A DNA stretch of 64,000 nt from Archangium sp. (GTDB lineage Bacteria; Myxococcota; Myxococcia; Myxococcales; Myxococcaceae): assembly GCA_047600485.1 (NCBI GenBank), contig JASGKS010000001.1, positions 6,848,259 to 6,912,258 on the forward strand. The letters run 5' to 3'. The notes under the pieces are model-generated. The model made no database searches. It saw only the letters and a list, made by a program, of their open reading frames with translations, and was not told the DNA's origin. Both the position numbers and the translations under genes were made by a program. Shown here one piece after another: positions 38,055 through 64,000 of this stretch; the first letter of the stretch is position 1; every line of letters begins with the position of its first letter.

Positions 38055-38895
38055 GCGCTGCAGACTCTACTCAGAGTGCCCGCGCGTGCCCCGCCCGAAG
38101 AAACCACCGCGTTGGTTGGAGGCCGCGAGGCTGCGCAACGACGGAACGCCGGCCGATTGGCTCTCCCGGGCGCTGGCGCGCTCGGGCGTGATGCCCCTCA
38201 AGGAAGCCGAAGAGGCGATTCGGGCCGGTCGCGTGGTGGTCGATTCGCGCGTCGCCACCGAGCCGCTGATGCCGGTGACGGTGGGCAAGAGCGTGGTGAA
38301 GGTCGACGACGCGAAGGTGTCGCTCGACTGGAAGACGCGCGTGCTGATGCTGCACAAGCCGGCCGGAGTGGTGACGCACGGCTCTGACCCGCAGGGAATC
38401 GGCACGGTGTTCGAGGTGCTGCTGTCGGCACTGCCCGCGGAGCTGTTGCGCTTCGGGTGGCACGCCGTGGGCCGGCTGGATCGCGACACGACGGGACTGC
38501 TGCTGTTCACCAACGACGAGAAGTTCGTCGCGCATGCGACGGCGCCGGAGACGCATCTGCCCAAGCGTTACGTCGCGCGCGTGAGCGGTGAAGTGACGGA
38601 CGAGAAGCTGCAGACGCTGCGGCGCGGCGTACAGCTCGAGGACTTCATGACGCGGCCGGCGAAGGCGACGCGGCGAGAGGCCGATGTCGTCGAGTTGGTG
38701 CTCACCGAGGGCAAGTTCCACCAGGTGAAGCGGATGCTGGGTGAGGTCGGGCTGCCGACGCTCACGCTTCATCGCGAGGCGGTGGGCACGCTGGAGCTCG
38801 ACGTGCCGGAGCGTGCACTGCGCGAGTTGAGCGACGACGAGGTCCGCGACAACCTCAGCTATCCCCCTCTCCCGCGAGGGAGAGGGTCGGGGTGA
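38029..38895 (+). CDS. RsuA/RluB-type pseudouridine synthase (S4 domain + catalytic domain); the start is uncertain and the C-terminus is extended by the dispersed repeat
   Basis: The sequence ..HAVGRLDRDTTGLLLFTNDEKFVAH..KRYVARVSG...GKFHQVKRMLGEVG..L.HREAVG is collinear with E. coli RsuA, including the catalytic Asp in RLDRDTTG. The annotated start overlaps the divergent kinase by 26 nt, and a GTG near 38086 is an alternative. The last 10 aa, [10 protein letters not shown], come from repeat copy 4. Confidence 0.75.
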   Translation: MSRGRGVDTRCRLYSECPRVPRPKKPPRWLEAARLRNDGTPADWLSRALARSGVMPLKEAEEAIRAGRVVVDSRVATEPLMPVTVGKSVVKVDDAKVSLDWKTRVLMLHKPAGVVTHGSDPQGIGTVFEVLLSALPAELLRFGWHAVGRLDRDTTGLLLFTNDEKFVAHATAPETHLPKRYVARVSGEVTDEKLQTLRRGVQLEDFMTRPAKATRREADVVELVLTEGKFHQVKRMLGEVGLPTLTLHREAVGTLELDVPERALRELSDDEVRDNLSYPPLPRGRGSG

Positions 38896-38905: not shown

Positions 38906-40015
38906 CTATTTCGCCGTCGTGGGCGGAGGCGGGTTGAGCGCCGCGGAAATCACCCGCGCCGCGCTCGGAGCCGCGAGCGTGCCGCCGCTGTAGCCAGTCG
39001 AAGTGGTCTCGATGCCCACGTAGACGACGAACGGAACGCGGTCCTGGGTGGCAGCTTCAGCGAGCGGAAACCCGGCGAAGTTCGCCCAATTCACGCCGTC
39101 TTCGATTTGCCACGTGCCGGTCTTCCCCGCGACGGCATGCAACGGCAGCCGCGCGGGTGCGCCCGTGCCGTCGTCGCGCGCCACGGTCTGCGCGAGCAAC
39201 AGCTGCATGCGCGTCGCCGTCTTCGCGGTGAACGCCTGCCGCGCCGTCTTCTCTCCCGCGCGCGTCACGGCCACCGGGTGGTACCGCCCCTCGTCGGCGA
39301 ACGCGCCGTACGCCGCCGCAATCTGCAGCGGAGAAATCTCGACGTCCGCGCCGAACGCCACGCGGTACCGCGCAGGAGGCTCGAGCGTGCGCACATTCGG
39401 CACGTGGCCCTTGCGCATCTTCGGCAGCATCGTCTGGTCGAGCTGCAGCGACTCGTACAGCGCGGCGAGCGGCTCGGCGCCCAGCTGCTCGGCGACCTTC
39501 GCGGTGCCGATGTTCGACGAGAAGACGAGCACGTCTTCCACGCTCATCTCTCCGCGCGGCACGCGGTCGTTGATGATCTCCTTCTCGCCGAGCCGCCACT
39601 TGCCGCCCTCGCCCATCACCGTGGTCGTCTCCTCGACCACGCCTTGATCGAGCGCCGCGGCGATGGTGAACGACTTCATGACCGAGCCCGGGTCGACGGC
39701 GCGCGTCGCGGCGAGCCACGGCTCGTTGACCGTGCCTTCACGCCCGCCCATCGCGAGGAGTGCTCCGGTGGACGGGTCGAGCATCACGATGACCGCCCGC
39801 TTGTTGGCCGGCTCGGCGCTGAGGCGATCGAGCTCGGCTTCGACCACGCGCTGCAACGAGAGGTCGATGGTGCAGTCCTTCGCGCCATCGCAGAGCGCAT
39901 CGCGCGCTCCTTCGGGTCCGACGACCCGCGCCTGCGAGGCACAGGCGACACACGTGGCCAGCAACACTGCGGTCGAGAACACACGAAGAGTGGGCATGTG
40001 CCCGGCGTGGAGCAA
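38906..40015 (-). CDS. Penicillin-binding-protein transpeptidase-domain lipoprotein (TP domain only)
   Basis: Lipobox LLATCVACAS. The SxxK motif is SVMK, the SxN motif is FSSNIG and the KTG motif is AGKTGT. At 369 aa it has no dimerisation or glycosyltransferase domain. Confidence 0.65.
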   Translation of the reverse strand: MLHAGHMPTLRVFSTAVLLATCVACASQARVVGPEGARDALCDGAKDCTIDLSLQRVVEAELDRLSAEPANKRAVIVMLDPSTGALLAMGGREGTVNEPWLAATRAVDPGSVMKSFTIAAALDQGVVEETTTVMGEGGKWRLGEKEIINDRVPRGEMSVEDVLVFSSNIGTAKVAEQLGAEPLAALYESLQLDQTMLPKMRKGHVPNVRTLEPPARYRVAFGADVEISPLQIAAAYGAFADEGRYHPVAVTRAGEKTARQAFTAKTATRMQLLLAQTVARDDGTGAPARLPLHAVAGKTGTWQIEDGVNWANFAGFPLAEAATQDRVPFVVYVGIETTSTGYSGGTLAAPSAARVISAALNPPPPTTAK

Positions 40016-40040
40016 CGCGAGTGCCAGCGCATGACTCAGA

Positions 40041-48136: not shown

Positions 48137-49591
48137 TTACTCCACCCACGAGAGCGGGCTCGACGGCGTGTGCAGCCGCGTGACCGTCACGTCGCGCACG
48201 TGCTTCTGCCCGTCGGGCGTGACGACCTCGAGCTTGTGCGGCCCGACGCTCACTTCGAAGCGCCCCGGAGCAAACCCCACCGACTTGCCGTCGACCTTCA
48301 CCTCGCCGCGCAGCAGGGCTTCGCCGCCGATGCTGATCAGTCCCGTGCCGGTCTCGACCACGACCGCGGGAATCACCTTCGTCGGGACCTTCGGTCGCAC
48401 GACACCTTCAGTGGGCGCCGGAGTGGACGCGTCGGGCACGAACGACTTCTCGGGAGCCGGCACTTCCGCTTCCACTTTCGGTTGCGTGTCGACGACAGGC
48501 TTGAGCACCACCGGAGGTGGAGGCAACGGCTGCGGCTCACTGAAGAGCACCGACACGCCGACGCCCGTCACGCCCGCCAGACCGACGACGAGAAATGGAA
48601 CCCACGCGCGACGCGTCGGCTTCGGCGAGCTCGCGACGACCGGCTTCGACGGCACCATCGGCGTCGCCTGCTCGATGAACGCGTCACGCGACGGAGCGAC
48701 CGACGCGACCCACTCCGCCAACGCCTTGCGCGGCTCGGCACCGGCGGCTTCTCTGACCGCGATGGCCGAGCACGCGAGCGCGAACGCCTCGGCGCTCTCG
48801 TAGCGTTCGGCTTTGTTCCGCCGCGTGGCGCGCGCAATTACGTCGCGCAGCTCGGGGTGCACGTCGAACGACAGCGTGAGTTCCTGGCCCGCGAGCAAGT
48901 CGACCAGCGCGTTCTCGTCGCGCAGCGCGCTCTCTCCGGTGAGCAGCGCGTGCAGCACGCAGCCGAGCGCGAACACGTCGGTGCGCGCGTCGAGCGAGCC
49001 GCGAATCGCCTGCTCCGGAGCCATGTACGCCGGCTTCCCGCGCGCCACGCCACCGACGGTCTTCTCGGTGCGCCCTTCAGCGAGCGCGATGCCGAAGTCG
49101 GAAAGCTTCACGTCACCGCCGCGCGAGACGAGGACGTTCTGTGGGCTCACGTCGCGGTGCACGATGTTGAGTGGCTTGCCGTCGTCCGACGTCGCGGCGT
49201 GCGCGAAGTGCAGCGCGTGACCGACCGTCGCGCACACGTGCAGCGCGAGCGCGACCGGCATGGGTTTGCTCATCGCCCGGCCCCACTTCGCGAGGCGCCA
49301 CACGTCGAAGCCGTCGATCAACTCCAGCACCTGAAACGCGCGGCCCGCTTCGACGCCGAAGTCGAGAATCGAGACGATGCCCGCGTGGTGCAGGCGGCTG
49401 GTGATGCGCGCCTCGTCGAGGAACATGCGCTCGAACGCGCCACCATCTTCTTCCTGCCGCGCGAAGAGCTGCTTGATGGCGACGCGCCGTGTGAAGCCCG
49501 CGTCACCGTGCGCGACCGCGAGCCACACCTCGGCCATGCCGCCTTCCGCGAGACGGCGCTGCAGCTCGTAGCGGCCAGCGAGGCGCGTCAT
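48137..49591 (-). CDS. Ser/Thr protein kinase with a TM segment and a C-terminal PEGA domain
   Basis: Kinase motifs LAEGGMAEVWLA, HRDVSPQNVLV, DFGIA, APEQ. The TM segment is WVPFLVVGLAGVTGVGVSVL and the PEGA is ..LLRGEVKVDGKSVGFAPGRFEVSVGPHKLEV.. Confidence 0.85.
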   Translation of the reverse strand: MTRLAGRYELQRRLAEGGMAEVWLAVAHGDAGFTRRVAIKQLFARQEEDGGAFERMFLDEARITSRLHHAGIVSILDFGVEAGRAFQVLELIDGFDVWRLAKWGRAMSKPMPVALALHVCATVGHALHFAHAATSDDGKPLNIVHRDVSPQNVLVSRGGDVKLSDFGIALAEGRTEKTVGGVARGKPAYMAPEQAIRGSLDARTDVFALGCVLHALLTGESALRDENALVDLLAGQELTLSFDVHPELRDVIARATRRNKAERYESAEAFALACSAIAVREAAGAEPRKALAEWVASVAPSRDAFIEQATPMVPSKPVVASSPKPTRRAWVPFLVVGLAGVTGVGVSVLFSEPQPLPPPPVVLKPVVDTQPKVEAEVPAPEKSFVPDASTPAPTEGVVRPKVPTKVIPAVVVETGTGLISIGGEALLRGEVKVDGKSVGFAPGRFEVSVGPHKLEVVTPDGQKHVRDVTVTRLHTPSSPLSWVE

Positions 49592-49609
49592 GGGTTGAGC
49601 TCTTGACGA

Positions 49610-51196
49610 CTACGCGAACAAGTCTTTCACGACATCGGTCAGCTGCTTCGGCGCGCGCACCGGGTGGTAGTGCACCGTCAACGCCGAGGCGAAGTCCTTC
49701 GCGGTCGCCGGCCGCTGCGTGCGTTCCTTCTCGAGCGCCGAGCGCACCAGCGCTTCGAGCGGCCCCGAAATCTCGTCGCGCCGCTCGCGCACCGAGACCT
49801 CTTTCTTCGCGCGAATCGCTTCCGTCAATTCTTCGAGCGTGTTGCCGACGAAGGGCTGCTCGAGGGTGAGCAGCTCGTAGAGCGTCACGCCCGCGGCCCA
49901 CAAATCGACCGACGGCGTGTGCGAGCCCATCAGCGCTTCCGGAGCGAGGTACGTCGGCCGCCCTTCCTTCAACGCGCGGCGCGCATCGCCCGAGCGGCGC
50001 GCGGTGCCGAAGTCGCCGAGCTTGATGGCTCCCGACTTCGCGATGAAGACGTTGTGCGGAGAGACGTCGCCGTGCACCAGTTCCCACGGCGCGCCGGTCT
50101 CGTCTTTCACGCCGTGCACCGCCGAGAGCGCGTCGAGCAGCACCTTCACCAGGTAGCAGGCGACGTCGATGGGCAGCTTCTTCTTGCGAGAGCGCGCGCG
50201 GCGGAGAATTTGCGAGAGGTCGTGGCCCTCGACGAGCTCCATCGCGAGGTAGTGCTGACCGTCGACCACGCCCGAGTCGACGAGCTTCACGATGTTGGCG
50301 TGCTTGAGCAGCGAGAGCGTCCTCGCTTCTTGCTCGAAGGCCTTCACCGCCTTCGCGTCACTCGCGCGGCGAGCGTGGAGCCGCTTGAGCGCCACCTGGT
50401 CGCCCTTGCGCGGCCCCTCGAAACCGCGCGCGGCGTGCACCACACTGGTGCCTCCGGTGCCGAGCAGCGTCATCACTTCCCACGGGCCGATGCGCTCGGG
50501 GCCTCCGTCACCTTTCGCAGCGGGAGGCGCGAGCGCGTCGACCTTTTCCTTCACGCCGGGCTTGGAGTCGGAAGAGAACTGCACCGACACGCCCTGCTCG
50601 GAGACGTTCACCACCGTCGCCGGCGCAGTCACTTCGCCGGTCGGCAGCCGAATCTCGACCTCGACCTTTTCGCGCAGCACCGGCGGCGGCGTCAGCGTGC
50701 GAAGCAGCGCGCCACCGGCCGACACGTTCTGCACCACCGCTTCGATTTTCTTGTCGCCGACCAGCACCGTGGCGGGCGCGATGACGGGCAGACGCGGCTC
50801 GGAGCGACGCTCGGGACTCTGCGCGAGCACCTCGTCGAGCACCTTGAGCACTTCGTCGGGCAACAGGCCGAGCCGCTGCACGCCGCACTGCTCGAAGCGG
50901 GACAGGAACTCGGCGCGCGCGCGGAAGTCGTCGCTGAGTTCCCACACCTTTCCGCCTGCGTGCTCACCTGCGTTGGTGATGGCGGCCTGGGTGCCCTCAC
51001 TGAAACGGTCTTCGCGGAAGCGGAGAATGACGAAGAGCTCCGGGCCGCCGAGGCGCAGACCGAGGTCGACCTGCAACAACGCCTCATCGAGGGCAGACAG
51101 CCAGATGTCGACGCAGCGGATGGCGCTCTGCCGGCGGTGACCTGATGCGTTCTCGAAGACGATCGCGCGCTCGACCGTCTCAACTCCGGCGCTCAC
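49610..51196 (-). CDS. PilZ-domain / Ser/Thr-kinase fusion protein
   Basis: The central PilZ signature is ERRSEPRLPV...QNVSAGGALLRT (RxxxR ... N.S.GG). It is followed by a Hanks kinase (LGTGGTSVVHAA, HGDVSPHNVFI, DFGTAR, APE). Confidence 0.7.
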   Translation of the reverse strand: MSAGVETVERAIVFENASGHRRQSAIRCVDIWLSALDEALLQVDLGLRLGGPELFVILRFREDRFSEGTQAAITNAGEHAGGKVWELSDDFRARAEFLSRFEQCGVQRLGLLPDEVLKVLDEVLAQSPERRSEPRLPVIAPATVLVGDKKIEAVVQNVSAGGALLRTLTPPPVLREKVEVEIRLPTGEVTAPATVVNVSEQGVSVQFSSDSKPGVKEKVDALAPPAAKGDGGPERIGPWEVMTLLGTGGTSVVHAARGFEGPRKGDQVALKRLHARRASDAKAVKAFEQEARTLSLLKHANIVKLVDSGVVDGQHYLAMELVEGHDLSQILRRARSRKKKLPIDVACYLVKVLLDALSAVHGVKDETGAPWELVHGDVSPHNVFIAKSGAIKLGDFGTARRSGDARRALKEGRPTYLAPEALMGSHTPSVDLWAAGVTLYELLTLEQPFVGNTLEELTEAIRAKKEVSVRERRDEISGPLEALVRSALEKERTQRPATAKDFASALTVHYHPVRAPKQLTDVVKDLFA

Positions 51197-51258
51197 ATCG
51201 ACAAGTGTAGCCCGGAAACACGCGCTCGCCTTTCACCTCGTGCGATGATGCGTGCGCG

Positions 51259-52371: not shown

Positions 52372-55300
52372 CTACTTCGCGACCGGCTTCAACGACTGCC
52401 GCTGCAGGAAGCGCACGAAGAGCTGCACCACCTCGGGGCGGAAGCGATGCGCGACCTTGGACCCGATGAGCTCGACGATTTGGTCCTTGGGCATCGCCTC
52501 GCGTGAAGCGGTCGCGGTGCTGAGCGACTCGTACGCCCGCGCGAGCGCCACGATGCTGCCCATCAAGCCAATCGACGCCATCGCGCCGAGGCTGCCGGGC
52601 CGTTCGCGCGTGCCCCAGTCGAGGTCCTGCTCGACGAGAATCGACGACCACGACGCCGCGGCTGGAGCATCACCCAGCTTCACGAACGGGAAGCGCACCG
52701 AAGTCTTCCGCGCAGCCGCGATGGCTTGTTGATCAGCCTCGGTCAGCTTCCCCGCGCGCTCGAGCATCTCGTCCTTCAAGTCGAAGTTGCCCACCTCGCT
52801 GAAGAACGACACCTGCGCCAAATCCATCAGCTGTTGATGCTCGAGGCCCAGCTCTCCGCCGAACATCACCGCGAGCATCATCACGTTCGCCGCGTGGAAC
52901 ACCTCGGCTTCGGCGTTGCGCTTGCGCGGCGTGAGGCCCGCGAAACGCACCATGCGTGAGTGCGCGGCCGTCGCCACCTCGTGGAAGACCTGCCGCACGT
53001 CGGGCATCTCGGCGCGCGGGTTCATCTTCCGCTCCGTCATCCACGCGCGGAACCCGAGCACCAGGTCGACGTACCGAATCATCGCTTCGCGCGAGAAGTC
53101 GGTCATCGGCGACGGGCGGATGTCGGGCTTCGCCGGCTTCGGCTGCTGGTTGTTCGCCGACACCAGCGTGATGGACGAGGTCTCGATGCCTTCGGCGTTC
53201 GCGCCCGCAGCGAGCCAGCGCACCAGCAATTCCAATTCAGCGCGCGGAGGCTGGCGCGTGAACGTGAAGCCCGCCACGCCGCGGCTCTCGAACGCCTTCT
53301 TCACGCGCTCGACCGCGCCGTCGTTGCCTTCGCCGACGGGCGCTCCATTCACGGTGAGCGAAGGAGAGGTCGTCACGCTCGCCTGCGCGCCCGCCGGCAG
53401 CAGCGCCGCGAGCGTCTTGCTGATGCGGGTGAACGCGGTGTCGAACAATTCGCTGTCGAGCTCGACGAGGCGCGAGGCCTGAGAGAGCGCGTGCAGGTCC
53501 ATCAACACGTCGCGCCACGCGGGCGGGTTGCGGTCCCACCTCCGAAGCTCGCCGACGTGCGACGTGGTCTCGGCAATCAACGCCGCCGAGCGCAGATGCC
53601 GGTCGGCCGCCGCGCGCACCGAATCGCCCTGCGACGAATCGTCGTTCACGCGCTGCATGAGCGAGGCCGCGTCGTCGCCCTTCATCACCGCGAGGCCTTC
53701 GAGCACCTCGACCTTGCGGCCTTCCGACTTGGCGCGACCGAGCAGCGGGCGCTGTGCGAGCTCGCTGGCCATCATCGACAGCGCCTCGGGCGAGTTCGAC
53801 TGGCCGATGGAAATCCACAGCGCGCGGCGTTCCTGGTCGGTGCGGGTGCTCGCGTTGTTGGGCTCGACCACGCCCTTGAGCGCCGCCAACACGCGCTCGG
53901 GGAAGTGCTTTCCGAGGAGCTGAATCGAGTGCAGCCGCGTCTCCGATTCCTCGTCGGTGACGCCCTGGCACACCAGCTTGTACGCGTCGTCCGAGCCCGC
54001 GCGCGCGAGGCCGGTCAACACCTCGCGACGGCGTGCGGGGTCGAGCCGGGCGAGCAGCTCACGCACGATGCGCGAGCGGTCTCCGACGCGGCCCTTCTCG
54101 AGGCAGTACACCAATTCCATGATGCGCCGCGGCCGCTTGGGCGCGAGCAAGTCGATGAACGGCTGCGGGCTGAGCGCGCACAACGACGCGAGGCCGGGGA
54201 GCAGCGCATCACGCGACGCAGCGAGGTCGATGTTCTCGAACAGCGAAATCCACGTCGGGCCGAACGCGGGGCCAAAGAAGGCGATGAGCTTGCCGAGCCC
54301 TTCAGCATCGGCCGGCTTGTTCTCGCGCAACCGCAGCGAGATGCGACGCGCGTTCTCGGTGGTCGCGAACTGCGAGATGGCGAAGTCGTACGCCCACTTG
54401 TGCAGCGCGTCGGCCTCGCCGTGGAACTTGAGGCGCTCGAGCAACGTCGCGAGCGTGCCCCACGCTTCCGCCATGAAGAGACCGTCGATGGCGCCGGCCA
54501 GCCGCTCGGAGACGAGTGATTCGGGCTCGACGTACTTGAGCAGCCGCGCGGCGTGGTCGGCGTAGCGCACCAGCAGGTGCAGCCCTTCGTCGCGCGCGAG
54601 TTCCTTGCGCACGCTCTCGAGCTCGACGGCGGTGCCCAGACCCGGGCCCGTGTCGTAGAGCCGCATGGTCGTCGCGTCGGCCATCACCACCGCGGCGCGA
54701 ACTTCAGGCGTGCTCGCGACTGGATTTGGCGGTTGCTGCTGCGCGGGAACGTGCGCGGCGAAACCGCCCGAGCGCGACGGCGGCGGAGCGAGCGGCAAGC
54801 CCTGACCGGGACCCGGCGTCGGCGGGCGTGAAATCGGCAAGCCGCGGCCCGGCCCCGGCGTGTGCGGAGAAATCGCGGGCGGCGGTGGCGCGCTCGCGAC
54901 GGACATTGGCAGCCCGCGGCCCGGCCCCGGCGTGTTGAGCGGCAGACCCTTGCCCGGCCCCGGCGTGAGCGACGACGGCGCGTGCTGAGGGAACGAGCCG
55001 GAGCTGCGCGACTTCGTGCCCGGCGTCAGCGGACCCGCGGTGCCGCGCGCGTTGAACGCTTCGATGGGCACAGCCGCGGCAGTCGAGCCGACGGTGATGC
55101 GCATGCCGCCGCCATCATCGTCATCGTCGTCTTTCTTCGCAGCGGGCGGCGGCGGAGGCGGCGGAAGCTTCTGCGTCGACGGGCGCGCGACGGCCGCGGT
55201 GGCGATGGGCGTGAGCCCCGACATGTCGACGTCGGAGAAGAATTGATCGAACAGCTCCTCGCTGTGCTTCTTCGCGGCGGCGCTCTGCAGCGGAGGCACG

Positions 55301-56451
55301 ACGGGCTTCGCGGCAACGGGCGTGGGCGGTGAAACAGCCGGCGGCGGCGGCAGCGGCTGCGTGGTGCGGGCCATCGGCGCACCGAACGCGGCGAACGGGT
55401 CACCTCCCGCAGCGGGAACTCCGCTGGGCGGAGAGATGCGTGAAGGCGAGAGCTGCTTGGCGACGTACGGCGTGGCGACGGACGCGGGCGTGGGCGACGT
55501 GCCGGGCTTGTTCGGAGAAGAGGCCGGCTCTTCCTGGTACTGCGTGGCGAGCGAGGCGAGCTGGCGAGTGCCGACGCGCACGCCGCTCCCGGCGACGAAT
55601 TCTTCGAGGGCCGAAGCGAGCTCGCGGCAATTCTGGAAGCGAACGTTGAGGTTCTTCGCCATCGCCTTGGCGACGATGTTGGCGTACTCGCGCGGCACGT
55701 CAGGAACGCGGCGCGTGAGCGGCACCGGGTCGGTCTTGATGATGTCGGCGATGAGCTGTTGATCAGGTACCTGCTCGTACGGCCGCGTGCCGGCAGCGAA
55801 CTCGTAGAGGATGACGCCGAGCGCGTAGACGTCGGCGCGCAGGTCGGCCTCTCCGATGATCTGCTCGGGAGGCATGTACGCAATCTTCCCCTTCACCGTG
55901 CCGTCGAAGGTCGCGGCCTGCGCACCGGTCTTCGCGATGCCGAAGTCGACGACCTTCACCGCGCCGTTGCGCGCAATGAGCATGTTGTCGGTGCTCACGT
56001 CGCAGTGAATGAGGCCCATCGGCTTGCCCGACGCGTCGGCGAACTCGTGCACGTACGCGAGGCCTTCACAGGCTTCTTCGATGACGCGCGCGCCGACGGC
56101 GAGTGGAATTCGGCGGTCGGGCGAGGCGCGCAGAATCGAGCGCAGGTTCGGACCGTCGACGAATTCCATCGCGAGGAAGTACGTGCCGTTCACTTCACCG
56201 AAGTCGAAGATTTGAACGACTGCGGGGTGCGCGAACTGCGCGGCGATGCGCGCTTCCTGCAGGAACATCGAGACGAACGATTCGTCCTTCGCGAGCGTCG
56301 GCAGAATGCGTTTGATGACGAGTGATTTCTCGAACCCGCCGGGTCCGATGACTTTCGCCAGAAACACCTCGGCCATGCCGCCCGTGGCCAGCTTCCGAAC
56401 CAGGTGGTACCGACCGAGCTGTTCCCCTTCGCTCGCCATCGCCGGGCGCAT
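52372..56451 (-). CDS. Large Ser/Thr protein kinase (1359 aa): N-terminal kinase, Pro-rich linker with tandem TPGPG(R/K/Q)GLP motifs, ~800-aa helical C-terminal domain of unknown function
   Basis: Kinase motifs LATGGMAEVFLA, HCDVSTDNMLI, DFGIAK, PPE. The linker contains LTPGPGKGLPLN/TPGPGRGLPMS/..TPGPGRGLPIS/..TPGPGQGLPLA. The stop abuts the phosphatase stop (52371/52372). Confidence 0.8.
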   Translation of the reverse strand: MRPAMASEGEQLGRYHLVRKLATGGMAEVFLAKVIGPGGFEKSLVIKRILPTLAKDESFVSMFLQEARIAAQFAHPAVVQIFDFGEVNGTYFLAMEFVDGPNLRSILRASPDRRIPLAVGARVIEEACEGLAYVHEFADASGKPMGLIHCDVSTDNMLIARNGAVKVVDFGIAKTGAQAATFDGTVKGKIAYMPPEQIIGEADLRADVYALGVILYEFAAGTRPYEQVPDQQLIADIIKTDPVPLTRRVPDVPREYANIVAKAMAKNLNVRFQNCRELASALEEFVAGSGVRVGTRQLASLATQYQEEPASSPNKPGTSPTPASVATPYVAKQLSPSRISPPSGVPAAGGDPFAAFGAPMARTTQPLPPPPAVSPPTPVAAKPVVPPLQSAAAKKHSEELFDQFFSDVDMSGLTPIATAAVARPSTQKLPPPPPPPAAKKDDDDDDGGGMRITVGSTAAAVPIEAFNARGTAGPLTPGTKSRSSGSFPQHAPSSLTPGPGKGLPLNTPGPGRGLPMSVASAPPPPAISPHTPGPGRGLPISRPPTPGPGQGLPLAPPPSRSGGFAAHVPAQQQPPNPVASTPEVRAAVVMADATTMRLYDTGPGLGTAVELESVRKELARDEGLHLLVRYADHAARLLKYVEPESLVSERLAGAIDGLFMAEAWGTLATLLERLKFHGEADALHKWAYDFAISQFATTENARRISLRLRENKPADAEGLGKLIAFFGPAFGPTWISLFENIDLAASRDALLPGLASLCALSPQPFIDLLAPKRPRRIMELVYCLEKGRVGDRSRIVRELLARLDPARRREVLTGLARAGSDDAYKLVCQGVTDEESETRLHSIQLLGKHFPERVLAALKGVVEPNNASTRTDQERRALWISIGQSNSPEALSMMASELAQRPLLGRAKSEGRKVEVLEGLAVMKGDDAASLMQRVNDDSSQGDSVRAAADRHLRSAALIAETTSHVGELRRWDRNPPAWRDVLMDLHALSQASRLVELDSELFDTAFTRISKTLAALLPAGAQASVTTSPSLTVNGAPVGEGNDGAVERVKKAFESRGVAGFTFTRQPPRAELELLVRWLAAGANAEGIETSSITLVSANNQQPKPAKPDIRPSPMTDFSREAMIRYVDLVLGFRAWMTERKMNPRAEMPDVRQVFHEVATAAHSRMVRFAGLTPRKRNAEAEVFHAANVMMLAVMFGGELGLEHQQLMDLAQVSFFSEVGNFDLKDEMLERAGKLTEADQQAIAAARKTSVRFPFVKLGDAPAAASWSSILVEQDLDWGTRERPGSLGAMASIGLMGSIVALARAYESLSTATASREAMPKDQIVELIGSKVAHRFRPEVVQLFVRFLQRQSLKPVAK

Positions 56452-56485
56452 CGTAGCGACGCAACCACCTGAAACACACGCGAGT

Positions 56486-58021
56486 TCAGTCAGCCTGCAT
56501 GCCCGGCCAGGAGACCTCGCGCGCTCGGAAGAATTCGACTTGCGAACGGGTGAGCCGCGGGCCTTGTGAGCTGAGTCGGCGGAGGTAGTCCTTCAGGTCG
56601 CGAGAGGCGGGCCGGGACCAGCCAAGCTCTGCGACTCCCAGCAATCGCGGGAAGATCATCGACTCGAGCTCTGCATCGGAGTCGATGAACTCGGTCCACG
56701 CCGCACCCTCCACACCTACGATCGACGACTCAGGCACACCTTCGAGCAGATCGACCGGTTCCCAATCGTAGGAATGGGAAACGCTGACGAAGCCGGCCCA
56801 GAAGGTGCCCACGTCCTTCGGCGTGTCGAGCGCGTACTGCATGTCGAAGTAGAGCCGCCTGGCGGGCGACAGCAGGATCAGCGCTCCCTGATCAGCGGCC
56901 TGCTTCGCGAGTGCCGGGTTCACCCAGTGCTGCACGATGGTGTTCGAGTCTGCACCGGCGCGCGCGAGCTCTTCCCAGCCGATGACGTGTTTGCCGTTCG
57001 CTTCGATGGCGGTGCGGGCGCGGTTGATCATCGCGCGGTAGTCGTCGAGCGTCGTCTGCTGCGCTTCGTCGCCGCCCAGATGAATCCACGGCCCCGGAGT
57101 GAGTGACGCGACCTCGCCGATGACGTCGTCGATGAAGGTGAAGGTCTCGGGCCGCGAGGCGCAGAGCGAGCTGAAGCCGACCATCGTGCCGGTGTAGGGC
57201 GCGGGCGACACGCCGTCGCAGTTGAGTTCGGGAAGTGAAGCGAGCGCGGCGGTGGTGTGGCCGGGCAGATCGATTTCCGGAACGACGACGATGAAGCGCG
57301 CCGCCGCGTAGTCGACGAGCTCGGTGTAGTCGTTGCGGGTGAGGAAGCCGCCCTGTCCTCCGCCGACTGCCGTCGAGGCGCCGATGGTGGTGAGCGTCGG
57401 GCGCGTCTGCAGCTCGAGCCGCCAGCCCTGATCATCGGTGAGGTGCAGGTGGAGGCGGTTCAACTTGTAGCGAGCCATCACGTCGATGAGCTTCTTCAGC
57501 TCGGCGACCGAGAAGAAGTGGCGCGCGAGGTCGACCATCAGCCCCCGCCAAGGGAAACGTGGGCCGTCGTGAAGCTCGCCGGTGAGGAGCGCGAAGGAGC
57601 CCGGCGTGTCGTACGCAGGCAACAGCTGCAGCAGCGTCTGCGTGCCGTAGAAGATTCCCGAGAACGTCGGCGCGCTGATGGTGACGCCTCCTCGCGAGAC
57701 GCGAAGTGAATAGGCCTCGTTGCGCGCCAGCGCGTTCGGGCCGAGCTCGAGCGCCTCGAGTCGAATGGTCGCGCTCGACGCGGTGCTGACGGGCCATTCC
57801 CAACCGGTGCGCGCGCGAAGCTCGGTCGCGAGCAGCTCGGCCATCGGGAGGAGCTCGACGCGCGAGACGCCGATGTTGCTGCGCGGGTCGAAGGTGTGCA
57901 CTCCGGAGGCGGAGTCGACGAAGGTCTCCTCGGGCACCGGGAGAACCGTGTCCCACGTCTGCACGGGCGCGGGTGCGCACGCGGTGACGAGGAGAAGTGC
58001 GAGCCCCACGAGTCGCGTCAC
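56486..58021 (-). CDS. GH20 beta-N-acetylhexosaminidase lipoprotein
   Basis: A GTG start gives MTRLVGLALLLVTACAP and overlaps the TetR stop as GTGA. The motifs RYKLNRLHLHLTDDQGWRLE and VVVPEIDLPGH are GH20 catalytic (the D-E pair is in LPGHT..). The upstream ~175 codons of track ORF 56486..58549 are rejected. Confidence 0.8.
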   Translation of the reverse strand: MTRLVGLALLLVTACAPAPVQTWDTVLPVPEETFVDSASGVHTFDPRSNIGVSRVELLPMAELLATELRARTGWEWPVSTASSATIRLEALELGPNALARNEAYSLRVSRGGVTISAPTFSGIFYGTQTLLQLLPAYDTPGSFALLTGELHDGPRFPWRGLMVDLARHFFSVAELKKLIDVMARYKLNRLHLHLTDDQGWRLELQTRPTLTTIGASTAVGGGQGGFLTRNDYTELVDYAAARFIVVVPEIDLPGHTTAALASLPELNCDGVSPAPYTGTMVGFSSLCASRPETFTFIDDVIGEVASLTPGPWIHLGGDEAQQTTLDDYRAMINRARTAIEANGKHVIGWEELARAGADSNTIVQHWVNPALAKQAADQGALILLSPARRLYFDMQYALDTPKDVGTFWAGFVSVSHSYDWEPVDLLEGVPESSIVGVEGAAWTEFIDSDAELESMIFPRLLGVAELGWSRPASRDLKDYLRRLSSQGPRLTRSQVEFFRAREVSWPGMQAD

Positions 58022-59479: not shown

Positions 59480-60559
59480 ATGTTCCCGGTCGCGGTCATG
59501 CTCGCTGTGTCGCTGCAGGCTGCACCTGACGGCCGCAGCTCGGTGACGGTGGTGGTCGACGGCCCCGCAGCGGGCGAGACGCGGCAGACGTTGAGCAGCG
59601 TCACCCTCCCGGTCGAGCTGCGGCTCGCCGATACGCCGACCGCGCTCGAAGCACCGACGCAGAGCGCATGGCCCGCGAAGCTCGCCGCCGCCCGCAAGGC
59701 CTATGTCGGCGCGCAGTTCGCCGAATGTCTCAAGCAGCTCGAAGGTGACTCCGCTGTGCCCGAGCTCCTCTCGACTGGCGAACGCGCGCTCGCGGCCCGA
59801 CTCCTCGCGTGGCGCGCCGCGTGTCACACCGGAGCCAACCAGCCGCAGCCCGCGCGCGTCGCCGCCGAAGCGCTCGCCACCTTCCAGCTCGCGGTGCCCG
59901 AAGACGTGGGCTCGATGACTCCCGACGTCGAGGCGCTGTTGGCTCGAGCCGTCACCCAGGTCGGAGCGACCCCGCTGCGAAAGCTGCGAGTCGAGAGCAC
60001 TCCGTCGGGTGCGTCGGTCGAAGTCGATGGTCGGCCCGCCGCCTGCACTACGCCCTGCACCGTGGATGTGTTGGCCGGAACGCACGTTTTGAAATTGTCG
60101 GCTGATGGCTACAGCCCGTCGTGGCAGTTGGTGGCTCGAGACGACACCACCGCCGCGACGCTGCAGGCCGCGACGCCCGAGCTCGCCGCGAGTCAGTGGC
60201 GCGCGCGCGTGCAGCGTGGAGACGCGGTCGACTCCGATGCGTCGGTGAAGTTGCTGTCGAATGCGCTGCGGGCGCCGCGTCTCGCGGTGGTGACGAGCGA
60301 CGCCGCGGCACCGAAGACCCTGCGCGGCGCGCTCGCCGTCGACGGAGTGCTCACCACCCGCGCCGAGCGCCTCGGAGACGCCGAGGGCCTGGTGCGCGAC
60401 CTGCTCGTGCGCGGGCTCATCGTCGAAGAGACGCCTCCTTTCTACAAACGCTGGCCGTTCTGGGTGGCGGTCGGTGTCGCCGCCGTCGCCGCCGGAGTGA
60501 CCACCGCCGTTCTCGTCAGCACTCGCCGCACCATCACCAGCGTGGAGCTGAAGCCGTGA
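59480..60559 (+). CDS. PEGA-domain protein with a C-terminal TM anchor
   Basis: PEGA: LRVESTPSGASVEVDGRPAACTTPCTVDVLAGTHVLKLSADGYSP. TM: WPFWVAVGVAAVAAGVTTAVLV. It lies 12 nt after the SDR gene. Confidence 0.6.
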   Translation: MFPVAVMLAVSLQAAPDGRSSVTVVVDGPAAGETRQTLSSVTLPVELRLADTPTALEAPTQSAWPAKLAAARKAYVGAQFAECLKQLEGDSAVPELLSTGERALAARLLAWRAACHTGANQPQPARVAAEALATFQLAVPEDVGSMTPDVEALLARAVTQVGATPLRKLRVESTPSGASVEVDGRPAACTTPCTVDVLAGTHVLKLSADGYSPSWQLVARDDTTAATLQAATPELAASQWRARVQRGDAVDSDASVKLLSNALRAPRLAVVTSDAAAPKTLRGALAVDGVLTTRAERLGDAEGLVRDLLVRGLIVEETPPFYKRWPFWVAVGVAAVAAGVTTAVLVSTRRTITSVELKP

Positions 60560-61191
60560 ACGCGCGCGCACTCCTCTTTACTGCGGGACTCCTGCTGCTC
60601 GGCGGTTGTGTGGAGACGCGCTCCGTCGCGTTGACCTTCGGCTCCGATGGCGAAGGCCTCGATGGCTTCATGTGCAAGGACAGCACGGACACGCAGCTCC
60701 TCTCTCGTTTGCCGAGCGGCGGAAAAGCGAGCCTGGTCATCGACTTCATTCGCCTGGGCGGCGTGCCCGGGTGCCGCACCGGTCAGCTGATGAAGTGGTG
60801 TGGCTCGCACGACTGCTCGGCGATTCAGCAGACGCGCTCGTGCGTCGAGGTGAAGTTGCCGGGCCCGAACGCGGCGCGCGAAGAGCTGCGCACGCAATTG
60901 CTCGGCGCGATTCGCGAGAGTGGTGGGTTTCAGGCGCTGGCCGATGCGCCCGATGAGTTCGTCATCGTGCGCGTGGTCGGGACGGCGCAGTCGTGTGATT
61001 CGCTCCTGCCTTCGGGTGACGCGCCGCTGCCGGCGTTCGACAAGTCACAGCTCGTCGGGTGCGCGTACAGCTGCCCGGTGTTGCTCGACAAGGTCGACCA
61101 GGACGTCTACCTCGGCTTCGAGACGCTCACCGCGTCGTGCGAGCAGGGCGTGCGCATCTGCAGCGACGGCCAGCTGCAGTGGCAGCCCTGA
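60556..61191 (+). CDS. Hypothetical Cys-rich lipoprotein
   Basis: The GTG start overlaps the PEGA gene's stop (GTGA). The sequence begins VNARALLFTAGLLLLGGCVE and has 11 Cys in the mature part. The upstream 145 codons of track ORF 60121..61191 are rejected. Confidence 0.5.
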   Translation: MNARALLFTAGLLLLGGCVETRSVALTFGSDGEGLDGFMCKDSTDTQLLSRLPSGGKASLVIDFIRLGGVPGCRTGQLMKWCGSHDCSAIQQTRSCVEVKLPGPNAAREELRTQLLGAIRESGGFQALADAPDEFVIVRVVGTAQSCDSLLPSGDAPLPAFDKSQLVGCAYSCPVLLDKVDQDVYLGFETLTASCEQGVRICSDGQLQWQP

Positions 61192-61319: not shown

Positions 61320-62627
61320 TCATTCGCCGCGGAGCTTGTGCCGCTGCAAGAGCTCGATGAGATGCGAGCGATCCATCTTCGCGTGACGTGACGCCGCGCT
61401 CACGTTGCCGCCCGTCACCTCGAGCAGCTTCTTCAAGTAGTGCACCTCGAACTTGTTCAGCACCTCGGCGCGCGCGTCCTTGTACGTGCGCTCGGGCCCG
61501 GGCATCGCGTTCGGGTCGGCGGTCGAAGCGCTCGTCGCATCGAGCTCCGGCGGCTCGCCCATCGCCAGCGTCGCCTCGACGAGGTTGCGCAGCTCACGCA
61601 CGTTGCCCGGCCAGGGATGCGCGCGGAGCGCAGTGAGCGCGTCCTTGTTGAACAGCGACTCCAGCTTCGCCTCGCTGCCCGCCTCGCGCAGGAAGTGAGT
61701 GATGAGCAGCTCGAGGTCTTCCGCGCGCGAACGCAGCGGCGGCACGTCGAGCTTCACCACCGCGAGCCGGAAGAACAGGTCGAGACGGAACTGCCCGCTG
61801 TTCACCGCCGCGCGCAGGTCGCGATGCGTGGCCGACACCACGCGCACGTCGACGTTCAATTCTTCCGAGCCGCCGACGCGACGAAAGCGCCGACGCTCGA
61901 GCACGCCCAGCAACGACGCCTGCAGCGTCGGCGACAGCTCACCAATCTCGTCGAGAAACACCGTGCCGCCGTTCGCGCGCTCGAAGGCGCCGGCGTGGCG
62001 GCGGTCTGCTCCCGTGAACGCGCCGCGCTCGTGACCGAACAGCTCACTCGCCACGAGCCCCGGAGAGAGCGACGCGCAGTCGACGGTGACGAACGGCTTA
62101 CCCGCGCGCGCGCCGCGCTCGTGCAGCGCCATGGCGATGAGCTCTTTGCCCGTACCCGACTCGCCCTGCAGCAGCACCGCACTGTCGCTGCGAGCCGCCT
62201 TGTCGATGCGCGCGAGCAAGGTGCGCATCACCGGCGACTGGCCCTTCAACGGCCCGAGTGAATCGTGCTCCGAGAGCTCGACGCTGCCGGTCTTGCCGCT
62301 GCCGACCTCGAGCTGCGTGTGCCCCAACTGCAACACGGTGCCCGGAGGCACGAGCGCTTCGGTCAACGCGAGGCCATGCGCGAGCGTGCCGTTGGTCGAG
62401 CTCAGGTCGCGCACCGCCACCTTGTCGCCACGGCGCGAAAGCTCGACGTGAAAACGCGAGACCGACGGGTCAGTGAGCTTGAGGGTGTTGCCTTCCGCGA
62501 TGCCGACGGTGAGCGCCTCGGTCACGTCACTCACTGCGAGGCCCAGGTCTGGTCCTGCGACGACACGCACCGACAACGTGCGCACCGGCAACCCCACGAC
62601 CGCGATGGGCAGCGTCCCTTCACTCAT
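61320..62627 (-). CDS. Sigma-54-dependent transcriptional activator with an N-terminal FHA domain (FHA + AAA+ sigma-54 interaction domain + Fis-type HTH)
   Basis: The start is MSEGTLPIAVVGL (ATG at 62627). The FHA is ..VSRFHVELSRRGDKVAVRDLSSTNGT... The AAA+ module has GESGTGKE, GAFTGA, and ESELFGHERGAFTGA followed by a GAFERANGGTVFLDEI block. The C-terminus carries an HTH. The upstream 70 codons of the track ORF are rejected. Confidence 0.85.
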   Translation of the reverse strand: MSEGTLPIAVVGLPVRTLSVRVVAGPDLGLAVSDVTEALTVGIAEGNTLKLTDPSVSRFHVELSRRGDKVAVRDLSSTNGTLAHGLALTEALVPPGTVLQLGHTQLEVGSGKTGSVELSEHDSLGPLKGQSPVMRTLLARIDKAARSDSAVLLQGESGTGKELIAMALHERGARAGKPFVTVDCASLSPGLVASELFGHERGAFTGADRRHAGAFERANGGTVFLDEIGELSPTLQASLLGVLERRRFRRVGGSEELNVDVRVVSATHRDLRAAVNSGQFRLDLFFRLAVVKLDVPPLRSRAEDLELLITHFLREAGSEAKLESLFNKDALTALRAHPWPGNVRELRNLVEATLAMGEPPELDATSASTADPNAMPGPERTYKDARAEVLNKFEVHYLKKLLEVTGGNVSAASRHAKMDRSHLIELLQRHKLRGE

Positions 62628-62662
62628 GGGTGCGCGTTGTACTTCACCCTCACGGCTCCGGG

Positions 62663-62701
62663 CTGTCGGCTGTTCCCGACAGCTGTCGGCTCGACCCGAC
62701 A
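62663..62701. promoter_or_regulatory. Two tandem 20-bp palindromes (CTGTCGG-N6-CCGACAG and CTGTCGG-N5-CCCGACA); candidate enhancer-binding-protein site (UAS) or operator in the divergent region between the sigma-54 activator and the YVTN lipoprotein gene
   Basis: The full sequence is GGCTGTCGGCTGTTCCCGACAGCTGTCGGCTCGACCCGACAAC. The central CCGACAGCTGTCGG is itself a perfect 14-bp palindrome. Confidence 0.4.
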
Positions 62702-62733
62702 ACCTTCGGGGCCTGATCCAACGGAAGGGCCGC

Positions 62734-62747
62734 GGCGCGCCGTTTGC
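62734..62747 (+). promoter_or_regulatory. Weak sigma-54 (-24/-12) promoter candidate CGGCGCG-ccgt-TTGCT (GG-N10-GC spacing) about 15 nt upstream of the lipoprotein ATG
   Basis: The spacing is exact. The -24 element matches 4 of 6 positions of TGGCAC, and the -12 TTGC is present. It is co-located with the FHA enhancer-binding protein and the tandem palindromes. Confidence 0.25.
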
Positions 62748-62761
62748 TGACGGGTCCCGGC

Positions 62762-64000
62762 ATGAACTTCCAAGCCAAAACAATCCTGGGGGCAGTCGTC
62801 GTAGCGATGCTGAGCGCGTGTCCGCCCAACCCGACACCCGATGGCGGCGCAGGCGGAGGCTCGGGCGGCGGCGGAGGCGTGACTGGCGGTGGCGGCGGCG
62901 GAGGCGATGACGCCGGCACCGGCGGCGGCGGTGGCGCTGGTGGTGGAAGCGGCGGCGGCTCGGGTGGTGGAAGCGGTGGCGGTAGCGGCGGAGGCATGGG
63001 TGGCGGCATGGGCGGCGGTATGGGTGGCAGTGGCGGCAGCGGCGGTGGCGGCGGCGTGACCGGCCCCATCCTCTCGCGCGTCTCGCGCTCGACTCCGGTG
63101 GACATCACCGAGAACGACACCCTCATCGCAATGGTGAACCAGGACAGCAACTCGCTGTCGTTCTTCTCGTCGGCGACGAAGACGCGCACCGCGTCGGTGA
63201 ACTTCGCGAACGACTCGATGCCGGTGTCGGTCGTCCTTCACCCTGACGGCACGACGGCGTTCGTCGCGCTGCGCCGCTCCGGTGAGCTGGCGAAGGTGAC
63301 GGCCATCGACACCATCAACCCGGTCGTCTCGGGCACGCGTGCGACGGTCGGCGCGGAGCCGACGGGCGTGGCGCTCACTCCGAGCGGCGCGGTCGCCGTG
63401 GTCGCGAACTTCAACGAAGGCACGCTGAGCTTCGTCGACACCGCGAGCATGAGCGTGATGGGCACGGCGAACGTCGGCGGCAACCCGCGCGCGCTGGTCA
63501 TCAGCAACGACGGCGACACCGACGACTTCGACGAGAAAATCTACGTGACGCAGTTCTACGGCGAGGCCACCGCTGAGATGAGCGACAGCGGCCGCGTCGG
63601 AAAGGTGCAGGTGGTCGACGTCAACACCCGCTCCGTCACCGCCACCATTTCACTGCAGCCCATCGCGGACACCGGCTTCAACGTCGCCCTCCCCGACGGC
63701 GGGCCGGGAACCAACGTGGGCTGCGGCATCAACCAGCTGTTCTCCATCACGCTCAACAACGGCAAGGGCTACGTGACGAGCGTGTGCGCCGCGCCGCAGG
63801 GCCCGGTGTTCAAGTTCACCAACGTGTTCGCCGCGGTGTCGGTGTTCGACACGGCGACCAACACCGAAGACACGGGCATCGCGGGCACGGCGGCGTTGAG
63901 CAAGCTCGTCGCGGCGCAGGGCACCTCGACCTCGAACCTCCTCGGCGTTCCCATCGGCATCGACTTCAAGCCGAACAGCAACGTGGCGTACGTCATCTCG
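62762..64000 (+). CDS. Lipoprotein with a long Gly-rich linker and YVTN-family beta-propeller repeats; 3'-partial at window end
   Basis: MNFQAKTILGAVVVAMLSACPPNP, then about 70 aa of GGGSGGG/GGGMGGG, then repeats such as ..VVLHPDGTTAFVALRRSGELAKV.., ..VALTPSGAVAVVANFNEGTLSFVD.. and ..RALVISNDGD... There is no stop in the window, so it is absent from the ORF track. Confidence 0.65.
   Translation, partial: MNFQAKTILGAVVVAMLSACPPNPTPDGGAGGGSGGGGGVTGGGGGGGDDAGTGGGGGAGGGSGGGSGGGSGGGSGGGMGGGMGGGMGGSGGSGGGGGVTGPILSRVSRSTPVDITENDTLIAMVNQDSNSLSFFSSATKTRTASVNFANDSMPVSVVLHPDGTTAFVALRRSGELAKVTAIDTINPVVSGTRATVGAEPTGVALTPSGAVAVVANFNEGTLSFVDTASMSVMGTANVGGNPRALVISNDGDTDDFDEKIYVTQFYGEATAEMSDSGRVGKVQVVDVNTRSVTATISLQPIADTGFNVALPDGGPGTNVGCGINQLFSITLNNGKGYVTSVCAAPQGPVFKFTNVFAAVSVFDTATNTEDTGIAGTAALSKLVAAQGTSTSNLLGVPIGIDFKPNSNVAYVIS

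Follow-up and report, generated by a model that had tools for sequence, protein, structure and literature searches.

How is a lipoprotein gene controlled when it diverges from the gene of an enhancer-binding protein and begins almost at the edge of what looks like a sigma-54 promoter? This question is raised by a 64,000-nucleotide stretch of an Archangium sp. contig (JASGKS010000001.1), referred to here as the window, which has a base composition of 67% G+C. In it, the 134-bp gap at 62628-62761, between the divergent activator gene and the lipoprotein gene, houses all the control elements that we describe. Our analysis indicates that this gap is quite probably a compact sigma-54 control region, in which the activator would occupy two tandem palindromes (dyads) and the lipoprotein gene would be served by a sigma-54 promoter. 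The observation is real, and the architecture is an ordinary one for enhancer-binding proteins; its one unusual trait is a promoter placed directly against the start codon. The elements of the gap and the genes that flank it are the following.

61320-62627, minus strand: enhancer-binding protein (activator) gene, 435 aa, with an FHA-like N-terminal domain, a sigma-54 AAA+ domain with GAFTGA and a probable C-terminal Fis-type helix-turn-helix (HTH).
62636-62641, minus strand: TACAAC, putative -10 hexamer of the activator's sigma-A-type promoter, 8 nt before the activator ATG.
62663-62682: dyad 1, CTGTCGGctgttcCCGACAG, predicted promoter-distal upstream activating sequence (UAS), perfect 7+7, centred at about -86 of the predicted sigma-54 start.
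62683-62702: dyad 2, CTGTCGGctcgacCCGACAa, predicted promoter-proximal UAS, with one mismatch at the outermost base, centred at about -66 of the predicted sigma-54 start.
62712-62719: CCTGATCC box between the UAS and the promoter, containing GATC.
62733-62748, plus strand: sigma-54-type -24/-12 element CGGCGCGccgtTTGCT, with GG at 62734-62735 and GC at 62746-62747, exactly 10 nt apart.
62757-62761, plus strand: predicted transcription start zone; by the fixed geometry of sigma-54 promoters, +1 would be G62759 if C62747 is position -12.
62762-64000, plus strand: target gene, running off the window end, for a lipoprotein whose lipobox is followed by a Gly-rich linker and then a YVTN beta-propeller.

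The centres given for the dyads likewise take C62747 as position -12. The original prediction, an earlier reading of this DNA, had described two adjacent 20-bp palindromes with the half-site CTGTCGG, and both are there, the outer mismatch of the second apart. They abut, with a start-to-start spacing of 20 bp, and dyad 1 spans -36 to -55 relative to the activator ATG. When read as TGTCGG-N6-CCGACA, both are perfect, and they are the sole two perfect copies within the 64 kb; the chance of finding even one perfect copy in the window, as estimated from base frequencies, is about 0.008. With up to one mismatch allowed, this motif has four matches in the window against 0.53 expected, a number reached by 0 of 100 shuffles, and the window holds no further copies beyond one-mismatch matches within coding sequence. 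A third dyad-like site at 62819-62836 (11/12), within the lipoprotein gene, was rejected, given that it encodes the conserved C-P-P-N-P-T that follows the lipobox and that the orthologous locus L081 has no dyad there. A literature search on the TGTCGG motif and sigma-54 returned no title or abstract opening that concerned the motif.

For comparison, we used three sets of loci. The protein encoded at 61320-62627 has a 100% identical counterpart from an 'Archangium sp.' metagenome-assembled genome (MAG) in the protein database, and a graded series of orthologues from that database gave eleven loci, L081-L091; none of the 90%-identity clusters inspected for the activator had an M. xanthus member. 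A search of genome contigs with the activator protein, in which the matches listed were mostly paralogues or distant relatives (at most 55% identity), supplied L001, L003 and L004. Finally, a metagenome scan with the perfect tandem dyad as query yielded L097 and nine contigs with iteron-like arrays, and found no orthologous locus.

The dyads are a conserved feature of the orthologous loci. In the Myxococcaceae-like loci, whose activators are 61-89% identical, the region upstream of the promoter carries TGTCGG-type dyads that match at 9-12 of the 12 arm positions, and the sole Myxococcaceae-like orthologue in which no dyads were seen is L084, a locus at a contig end. L081 has dyad 1 unchanged, and the other orthologues that have this dyad keep 9-12 of its 12 arm positions. 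The tandem pair is spaced 20-21 bp apart in most loci and 34 bp apart in L089; just one copy scores above threshold in L090 and L091, and the loci of Corallococcus and Hyalangium keep their right arms (CCGACA or CCAACA) at a 21-bp spacing while the left arms are degenerate. One site of each pair tends toward the complete 18-bp palindrome TGTCGGsTCGAsCCGACA. The dyads stay conserved where the adjoining DNA diverges: in a four-way alignment (A1), the arms of the dyads show long runs of invariant columns, and GG, TTGC and a TA close to the start of the activator gene are invariant as well, with several more such columns scattered over the gap. Across about 195 kb of related loci, dyad matches of at least 11/12 are nearly limited to these control regions. 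Dyad-like matches in the PEGA gene of L083 and L086, which coincide with a conserved L-S-A codon run and reach just 10/12 in the window, were set aside as a coding coincidence. Covariation between the HTH and the dyad was also considered as evidence and is not decisive.

The second conserved component is the promoter element. As the original prediction had it, a sigma-54-like promoter with exact GG-N10-GC spacing is found at 62733-62748, downstream of the palindromes and before the ATG; the distance from the palindromes had been put at about 50 nt and is 30 nt when counted from where the second one ends, or about 41 nt from its centre. The element matches 10 of the 12 scored positions of yTGGCACGrnnnTTGCw, the exceptions being T-26 and A-22, and is one of only two matches in the window to TGGCACG-N4-TTGCW with at most two mismatches, where shuffles give 11.7. 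Its weight comes from its conservation and not from this single-sequence match. We scanned the lipoprotein strand of every gap for GG-N10-GC in a set of 14 loci, orthologous or analogous, some of which are distant and have other dyads and other targets. In 13 of the 14, the divergent lipoprotein gene is faced by an element that fits the consensus at 8-11 of its 12 positions, while the best matches on the opposite strand of the same gaps score 4-8. Some of these elements are listed below.

L081: -24/-12 element CGGTGCGcggcTTGCT.
L083: -24/-12 element CGGCACGtgccTTGCG.
L088: -24/-12 element TGGAACGgcgtTTGCG.
L089: -24/-12 element GGGCACGccggTTGCG.
L090, from Hyalangium: -24/-12 element TGGTACGgccgTTGCG.
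L091, from Corallococcus: -24/-12 element TGGTACGgccaTTGCC.
L001, from a Sandaracinus MAG: -24/-12 element GGGCACGtgggTTGCT.

Between the proximal dyad centre and the C at -12 there are 54-57 nt in the window (55 nt), L081, L088, L089 and L097 (54 nt by our own count), 78-79 nt in L082, L085, L086, L090 and L091, and 132 nt in L083. The dyads of L083 were pushed to about 132 nt from the -12 position because a 22-bp perfect inverted repeat (CTGTCCGAGCGGAGTCGAGGAC ... GTCCTCGACTCCGCTCGGACAG; 3829-3910) has been inserted between them and the -24/-12 element. In the interval between the UAS and the promoter, we found no convincing match to the consensus of an integration host factor site, only the box at 62712-62719, whose TGATCC is kept at the equivalent place in the window, L081, L082 and L085 and is absent in L083 and L086.

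Do the dyads belong to the sigma-54 promoter or to the activator gene? Three arrangements indicate that they serve the promoter and not the activator gene alone. In L082 and L085, a SWIM-like open reading frame (ORF) splits the dyads from the activator gene, and the dyads are still found 78-79 nt from the -12 element. L083 and L086 (1030-1260 and 1100-1330, reverse strand) carry a second dyad pair, which starts at or overlaps the stop codon of the target gene. It is followed by a -24/-12-like element (AGGCACGccgcTTGAA, CGGCACGgcggTTGTA; GA or GT at -12), and 13 nt separate this element from the ATG of the lipoprotein gene that comes next (755 aa, with a faint match to GDSL lipases); no activator gene start is nearby. 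In L097 (2327-2450; a bioreactor metagenome contig, 71% GC), an activator gene has three tandem TGTCGG-N6-CCGACA dyads behind it; 30 nt further on comes a perfect TGGCACGgatgTTGCT (TGGCACG-N4-TTGCT), and after that a short-chain dehydrogenase gene with a normal Shine-Dalgarno leader. Together with the conservation of the dyads across the orthologous loci, these second modules and L097 lend support to the earlier proposal of an NtrC-type tandem UAS.

Four side observations concern the same regions. The SWIM-like ORF (L082 3532-4008; L085 450-890) encodes 146-158 aa with a weak SWIM zinc-finger match, and its stop codon overlaps the activator start codon (ATGA), which suggests translational coupling. 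At the equivalent of the second module, L081 has a short gap and no dyads, and its two genes are probably one operon. L004 carries, at 1790-1875, four tandem copies of about 21 nt (CACCCTTCACCGTCAGCGCGG) between a single TGTCGGgtcgacCCGACA dyad and the activator gene. In the window, CTTCACCCTCACGGC at 62643-62657 resembles that repeat.

What distinguishes this promoter is its distance from the start codon. The TTGCT ends 13 nt before the ATG at 62762, and 14 nt separate the C of the GC from the A of the ATG, close to the 15 nt or so originally given and slightly less. Taken with sigma-54 promoter geometry, this spacing implies that the lipoprotein mRNA would have a 5' untranslated region of about 3 nt, too short for a Shine-Dalgarno sequence. 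The gene starts with ATG, and the sole alternative in-frame start would delete the signal peptide. The same GC-to-ATG distance of 13-14 nt is found in the window, L081, L083, L086 and the distant L001 and L003, which have unrelated targets, and again at a second site of the window:

40011-40026, minus strand: second strong sigma-54-like promoter, TGGCACtcgcgTTGCT, with one mismatch to the consensus and exactly 14 nt before a lipoprotein ATG.

In L082, L085 and L088-L091, the distance is 43-52 nt, and the leaders of L089 and L091 show a GGAGG. The gene behind the second site (about 38906-39997, minus strand) encodes a lipoprotein (MPTLRVFSTAVLLATC...) with a penicillin-binding transpeptidase domain. 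This second element comes directly after the stop codon of the upstream gene, so that any UAS would fall inside that gene.

To see how frequent this geometry is, we surveyed the high-GC loci among L001-L101 together with the window for sigma-54-like matches of at least 10/12 with GG and GC intact, requiring an ORF of at least 120 aa with high G+C at third codon positions to start within 120 nt; regions close to activator genes are over-represented in this sample. A start codon lies 12-15 nt after the GC in 14 of the 41 matches (34%), eight of them at 13 nt and four at 14 nt, compared with 5.2% at 12-15 nt among 5111 weak GG-N10-GC matches taken as a control. Part of the fourteen short-distance sites are orthologous to each other, and five (those of L009 and L017 and the PEGA-gene sites of L082-L084) were judged ambiguous because TGCTAnnnn or GTAGCAC could be a sigma-A -10 element. 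Most of the other short-distance sites have no TA-containing hexamer. The sigma-54-like sites before the PEGA gene of L082-L084 and L086 were not used as evidence, as their TGCTAnnnn could be the extended -10 of a leaderless sigma-A promoter. Many of the ORFs behind short-distance sites encode lipoproteins or secreted proteins. The survey suggests that enhancer-dependent leaderless mRNAs may be common in Myxococcota. In a literature search, no title or abstract tied sigma-54 promoters to leaderless mRNAs, which is not proof of novelty.

The original description of the adjacent regulator as an FHA-domain enhancer-binding protein is borne out. Pfam places FHA at residues 40-102 and Sigma54_activat (PF00158) at residues 128-293, the latter with 218 bits against a cutoff of 20.2, together with AAA_lid_14. 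The HTH_8 match at residues 391-423 scores 17.6 bits, under the cutoff of 22, and PF02954 is recorded for several orthologues. The Walker A and Walker B sequences GESGTGKE and FLDEIGE are conserved in the orthologues, ERGAFTGA is found in the window activator and in all of them, and the HTH segment GNVSAASRHAKMDRSHLIELL is highly conserved, with the recognition helix MDRSHLIELL kept in those orthologues that retain the dyad.

The activator gene also appears to have a promoter of its own. Ten loci have the activator as their first gene, and all ten carry a TAnnnN hexamer 7-9 nt ahead of its start codon, as TACAAC in the window and as TATGAA, TATGGT, TACAAT, TACAGT, TAGCTT or TAAGGT elsewhere, and its TA is invariant in alignment A1. 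The position of this hexamer, in DNA of 67-70% G+C, implies a transcription start that would make the activator mRNA leaderless as well. The dyads span -36 to -75 of this apparently leaderless sigma-A-type promoter. Because of this position, and because the four closest loci have 37-39 nt between the dyads and the activator ATG, autoregulation of the activator through the dyads is plausible, and it would be compatible with their role as UAS.

From the sequence elements, domains, conservation and co-occurrence that we observed, we infer the following course of events. The FHA-type activator would bind through its probable C-terminal Fis-type HTH, as two dimers on one face of the DNA, to the abutting TGTCGG-N6-CCGACA dyads at 62663-62702, whose centres would lie some 66 and 86 bp upstream of the start. 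The N-terminal domain would release the AAA+ domain and thus allow the activator to oligomerise, and ATP hydrolysis, acting with the GAFTGA loop, would open the sigma-54 holoenzyme complex at CGGCGCG-N4-TTGCT (62733-62748). Transcription of the gene for the YVTN-propeller/di-haem lipoprotein would then start about 3 nt before its ATG and give an essentially leaderless mRNA. The likely input would be an envelope signal that arrives via the syntenic Ser/Thr kinase, the PEGA protein and the small lipoprotein, and the dyads may have a secondary role in autoregulation of the activator, as in the PexR system of M. xanthus.

Several findings weigh against this account. The distance from the dyads to the promoter is variable, from 55 to 132 nt, while that from the dyads to the activator ATG is nearly constant, at 37-39 nt in the four closest loci, which would suit a purely autoregulatory operator. 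The -24/-12 element taken alone is weakly significant (about 0.01 for the 134-nt gap on one strand), the window has the weakest -24 element of the set (CGGCGCG, with C at -26 and G at -22), and L087 is an exception, its TGGAACGggtcTTGAT having GA and not GC at -12. The activator of L097, which is unrelated to the window orthogroup (42% identical), has a different HTH with the same dyad, so the motif is not tied uniquely to the HTH of the window activator; the same tandem motif also forms iteron-like arrays in unrelated contigs. The FHA domain of the window activator, finally, has Ile opposite the Arg of the 'GR' motif in its alignments with Rv0020c and GarA.

The dyads could instead be mainly an operator for the activator's own sigma-A promoter, or be bound by another factor, the sigma-54 promoter of the lipoprotein gene being served by a different activator or by other sites. 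Such an operator would account for the interval of 37-39 nt that separates the edge of the dyads from the activator ATG in the window, L081, L083 and L086, even with some 75 extra nt in L083 on the side of the -24/-12 element, and for the conserved -10-like hexamer 7-9 nt before that ATG; PexR sites do overlap and repress a sigma-A promoter (PMC12754779). It would not account for the second dyad pair of L083 and L086, which precedes a -24/-12-like element far from activator gene starts, for the dyads of L082 and L085, which remain with the lipoprotein promoter despite the intervening ORF, or for L097, where the same dyads stand directly upstream of a perfect sigma-54 promoter. The two roles are moreover compatible, both having been shown for PexR, and we consider this alternative unlikely.

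That the GG-N10-GC is a coincidence of GC-rich DNA, with the lipoprotein gene transcribed from a sigma-70 or extracytoplasmic function (ECF) sigma promoter, gains something from the roughly 12 matches with at most two mismatches that each shuffled window contains and from the deviations of the element at -26 and -22. The real window, in contrast, has two such matches, each of them 14 nt before a lipoprotein ATG, and the element is kept in 13 of the 14 loci with diverged flanks; a simple scan for sigma-70 hexamer pairs and terminators found nothing, and there is no TA-containing -10-like hexamer before the lipoprotein ATG. We regard this possibility as very improbable. Still less credence is due to the idea that the tandem palindromes are a repeat of the iteron or repetitive extragenic palindromic (REP) type that plays no part in a promoter, which would draw on the arrays of 4 to about 20 copies of TGTCGG-N6-CCGACA in the unrelated contigs L092-L096 and L098-L101. 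Those contigs have a lower GC content (52-68%), their arrays resemble plasmid or phage iterons, and tblastn found in them no relative of the window activator, the lipoproteins or the PEGA protein. The copy number here is exactly two, and the position of the pair is orthologous in loci whose activators have diverged to 61-89% identity, and close matches are nearly confined to the control regions, as described above. An Rfam search of the control region gave no match. The sigma-54 control region stays the favoured explanation.

How the activator would receive its signal is a separate matter. The FHA profile is clear: PF00498 scores 40.6 bits against a cutoff of 20.7, PF16697 (YscD-type) scores 46 bits, the PDB matches are the FHA domains of Rv0020c and GarA, and the SRFH and STNGT of the window activator align with the SRRH and the STNGT or SLNGT of solved FHA domains. 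The Arg of the FHA 'GR' motif contacts the phosphate of phosphothreonine. The position of this Arg is occupied by I, N or T in the activator orthologues, and 24 of 26 aligned myxobacterial FHA-type activator paralogues (from L001-L037) also lack it, with S-x-x-H and N-G kept. The 'GR' region of the window activator corresponds to residues ~40-47. Four genes for Ser/Thr kinases, which the original prediction had noted nearby, were found, all on the minus strand.

36219-38066, minus strand: Ser/Thr kinase gene with a C-terminal PEGA domain.
48140-49609, minus strand: Ser/Thr kinase gene, ~490 aa, Pkinase, candidate upstream signalling partner.
49613-51232, minus strand: Ser/Thr kinase gene with a PilZ domain fused N-terminally to the kinase.
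52372-56592, minus strand: Ser/Thr kinase gene corresponding to the 1428-aa kinase of L081.

The kinase encoded at 48140-49609 aligns over its full length with the syntenic kinases of L083-L091, at 44-65% identity, and an orthologue of this ~490-aa kinase is syntenic with the activator in most orthologous loci. The proposal that the lipoprotein is placed under phospho-Thr control is partly supported, by the syntenic kinase, and called into question by the replacement of the 'GR' Arg with Ile, and we are evenly divided as to whether the input to the activator is phospho-Thr-dependent. A kinase link to the activator is likely, and its chemistry may be non-canonical, because the synteny of the kinase is kept but the FHA Arg is absent. 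The genes at 49613-51232 and 36219-38066 encode kinases of unusual architecture, and the kinase-PEGA fusion echoes the separate PEGA protein of the activator module.

The gene that is controlled was originally described as encoding a YVTN propeller lipoprotein, and this agrees with its lipobox, the LSAC of MNFQAKTILGAVVVAMLSAC in a lipoprotein signal peptide, and with a match of its propeller to PDB 1L0Q (E=6e-25); TIGR02276 and Pfam Lactonase also match, under their cutoffs. A Gly-rich low-complexity linker of 80-100 aa (about 62840-63060 in the window) follows the lipobox. Full-length orthologues of 823-873 aa, such as that at L081 1243-3864, add a C-terminal domain with two CxxCH motifs, the profile of which has matches at E=1e-5 to di-haem cytochrome c peroxidases, MbnH and MauG. 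The two halves of the target also match hydrazine synthase (PDB 5C2V), the beta subunit at E=4.5e-8 and the gamma subunit at E=0.01, which is a common domain combination and not a common function. The target is orthologous, at 54-79% identity, in L081, L083 and L086-L089, and L082 has a 38% relative. Hyalangium and Corallococcus have an unrelated 720-aa lipoprotein in its place, and in the Polyangia-type L001, L003 and L004 the divergent gene encodes a third kind of lipoprotein, with a CxxCH motif in L001. On the other side of the activator gene, two further genes belong to the module.

59480-60559, plus strand: gene of a PEGA-domain membrane protein (Pfam PEGA), convergent with the activator gene.
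60559-61191, plus strand: gene of a ~210-aa lipoprotein, convergent with the activator gene.

The order lipoprotein, gap, activator, ~210-aa lipoprotein, PEGA protein and kinase is kept in L081, L083, L084 and L086-L091, and the range of this synteny runs from MAGs of uncultured Archangium-like bacteria as far as Hyalangium versicolor and Corallococcus macrosporus DSM 14697. The window has additional genes inserted between the kinase gene and the PEGA gene.

These results describe a compact and conserved candidate circuit made up of a kinase, a PEGA protein, a small lipoprotein, an FHA-type activator, an 18-bp dyad and a propeller/di-haem peroxidase-like lipoprotein. The predicted motif TGTCGG-sTCGAs-CCGACA could be used for regulon searches in complete genomes. 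Apart from the start-codon geometry, the locus is a standard instance of enhancer-dependent transcription. As for that geometry, we advance, as a tentative generalisation that we hold with somewhat less than even confidence, that sigma-54 transcription in Myxococcota often starts at or within about 3 nt of the start codon and so defines a class of enhancer-dependent leaderless mRNAs, many of them for envelope lipoproteins; some would be driven by FHA-type activators without the phospho-Thr Arg, which may sense kinase, PEGA or lipoprotein partners by non-canonical contact. If start-site mapping confirms the geometry, sigma-54 promoters can yield leaderless mRNAs, a link between two mechanisms.

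Myxobacteria have dozens of sigma-54 activators, and for most of them the DNA sites, targets and signals are not known. A study by Jelsbak, Givskov and Kaiser (PNAS 2005) reportedly deals, by its title, with FHA-domain enhancer-binding proteins of M. xanthus and the input of Ser/Thr kinases into sigma-54 transcription; the window activator resembles these proteins in its combination of FHA, sigma-54 AAA+ and probable HTH domains and comes from the same phylum. Our locus is set apart by the newly predicted 18-bp dyad that goes with its FHA-type activator, by the conserved neighbourhood of kinase, PEGA protein and lipoprotein, and by the position of its sigma-54 promoter against the start codon.

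The general plan is that of NtrC and glnAp2 in enteric bacteria, where two strong dyads lie upstream of a GG-N10-GC promoter, dimers on one face of the DNA nucleate the AAA+ oligomer and GAFTGA contacts sigma-54. A sigma-70 promoter that overlaps the NtrC sites is also repressed through them. As a response regulator, NtrC is switched on when an Asp is phosphorylated, and the glnA mRNA has a normal leader. The window shares the two dyads upstream of a GG-N10-GC promoter, whereas its activator has no receiver domain, and its dyads lie near -66 and -86, 20 bp apart, compared with NtrC sites near -110 and -140 that are about 32 bp apart. The UAS of NifA is TGT-N10-ACA, while the window dyad is TGT-N12-ACA with the extended arms TGTCGG/CCGACA, both being found upstream of sigma-54 promoters; the window activator is not NifA, with an NCBIfam nifA score of 314 bits against a cutoff of 529.

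The closest characterised parallel, experimentally proven in M. xanthus, is PexR with its targets ahpC/katB, in which a bacterial enhancer-binding protein with a GAF domain acts at tandem CACCG-n6-CGGTG UAS that precede a -24/-12 promoter (Bastida-Martinez et al., Nucleic Acids Res 2025, PMC12754779). The pexR gene is divergent from the target and was reported to be probably leaderless, and the PexR sites overlap a sigma-A promoter, which makes PexR a dual activator and repressor (PMC12754779). Both systems have a divergent activator and target, with tandem interrupted palindromes of 6-nt spacer upstream of the -24/-12 element. PexR was rejected as an orthologue of the window activator, its sensor being a metal-binding GAF domain and that of the window FHA-like, and the two differ further in that the window has two sites, of the form TGTCGG-N6-CCGACA, where PexR has three or more. 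The target in the window is a propeller/di-haem lipoprotein, its sigma-54 promoter abuts the start codon, and its circuit is predicted from sequence, whereas that of PexR has been worked out at the bench.

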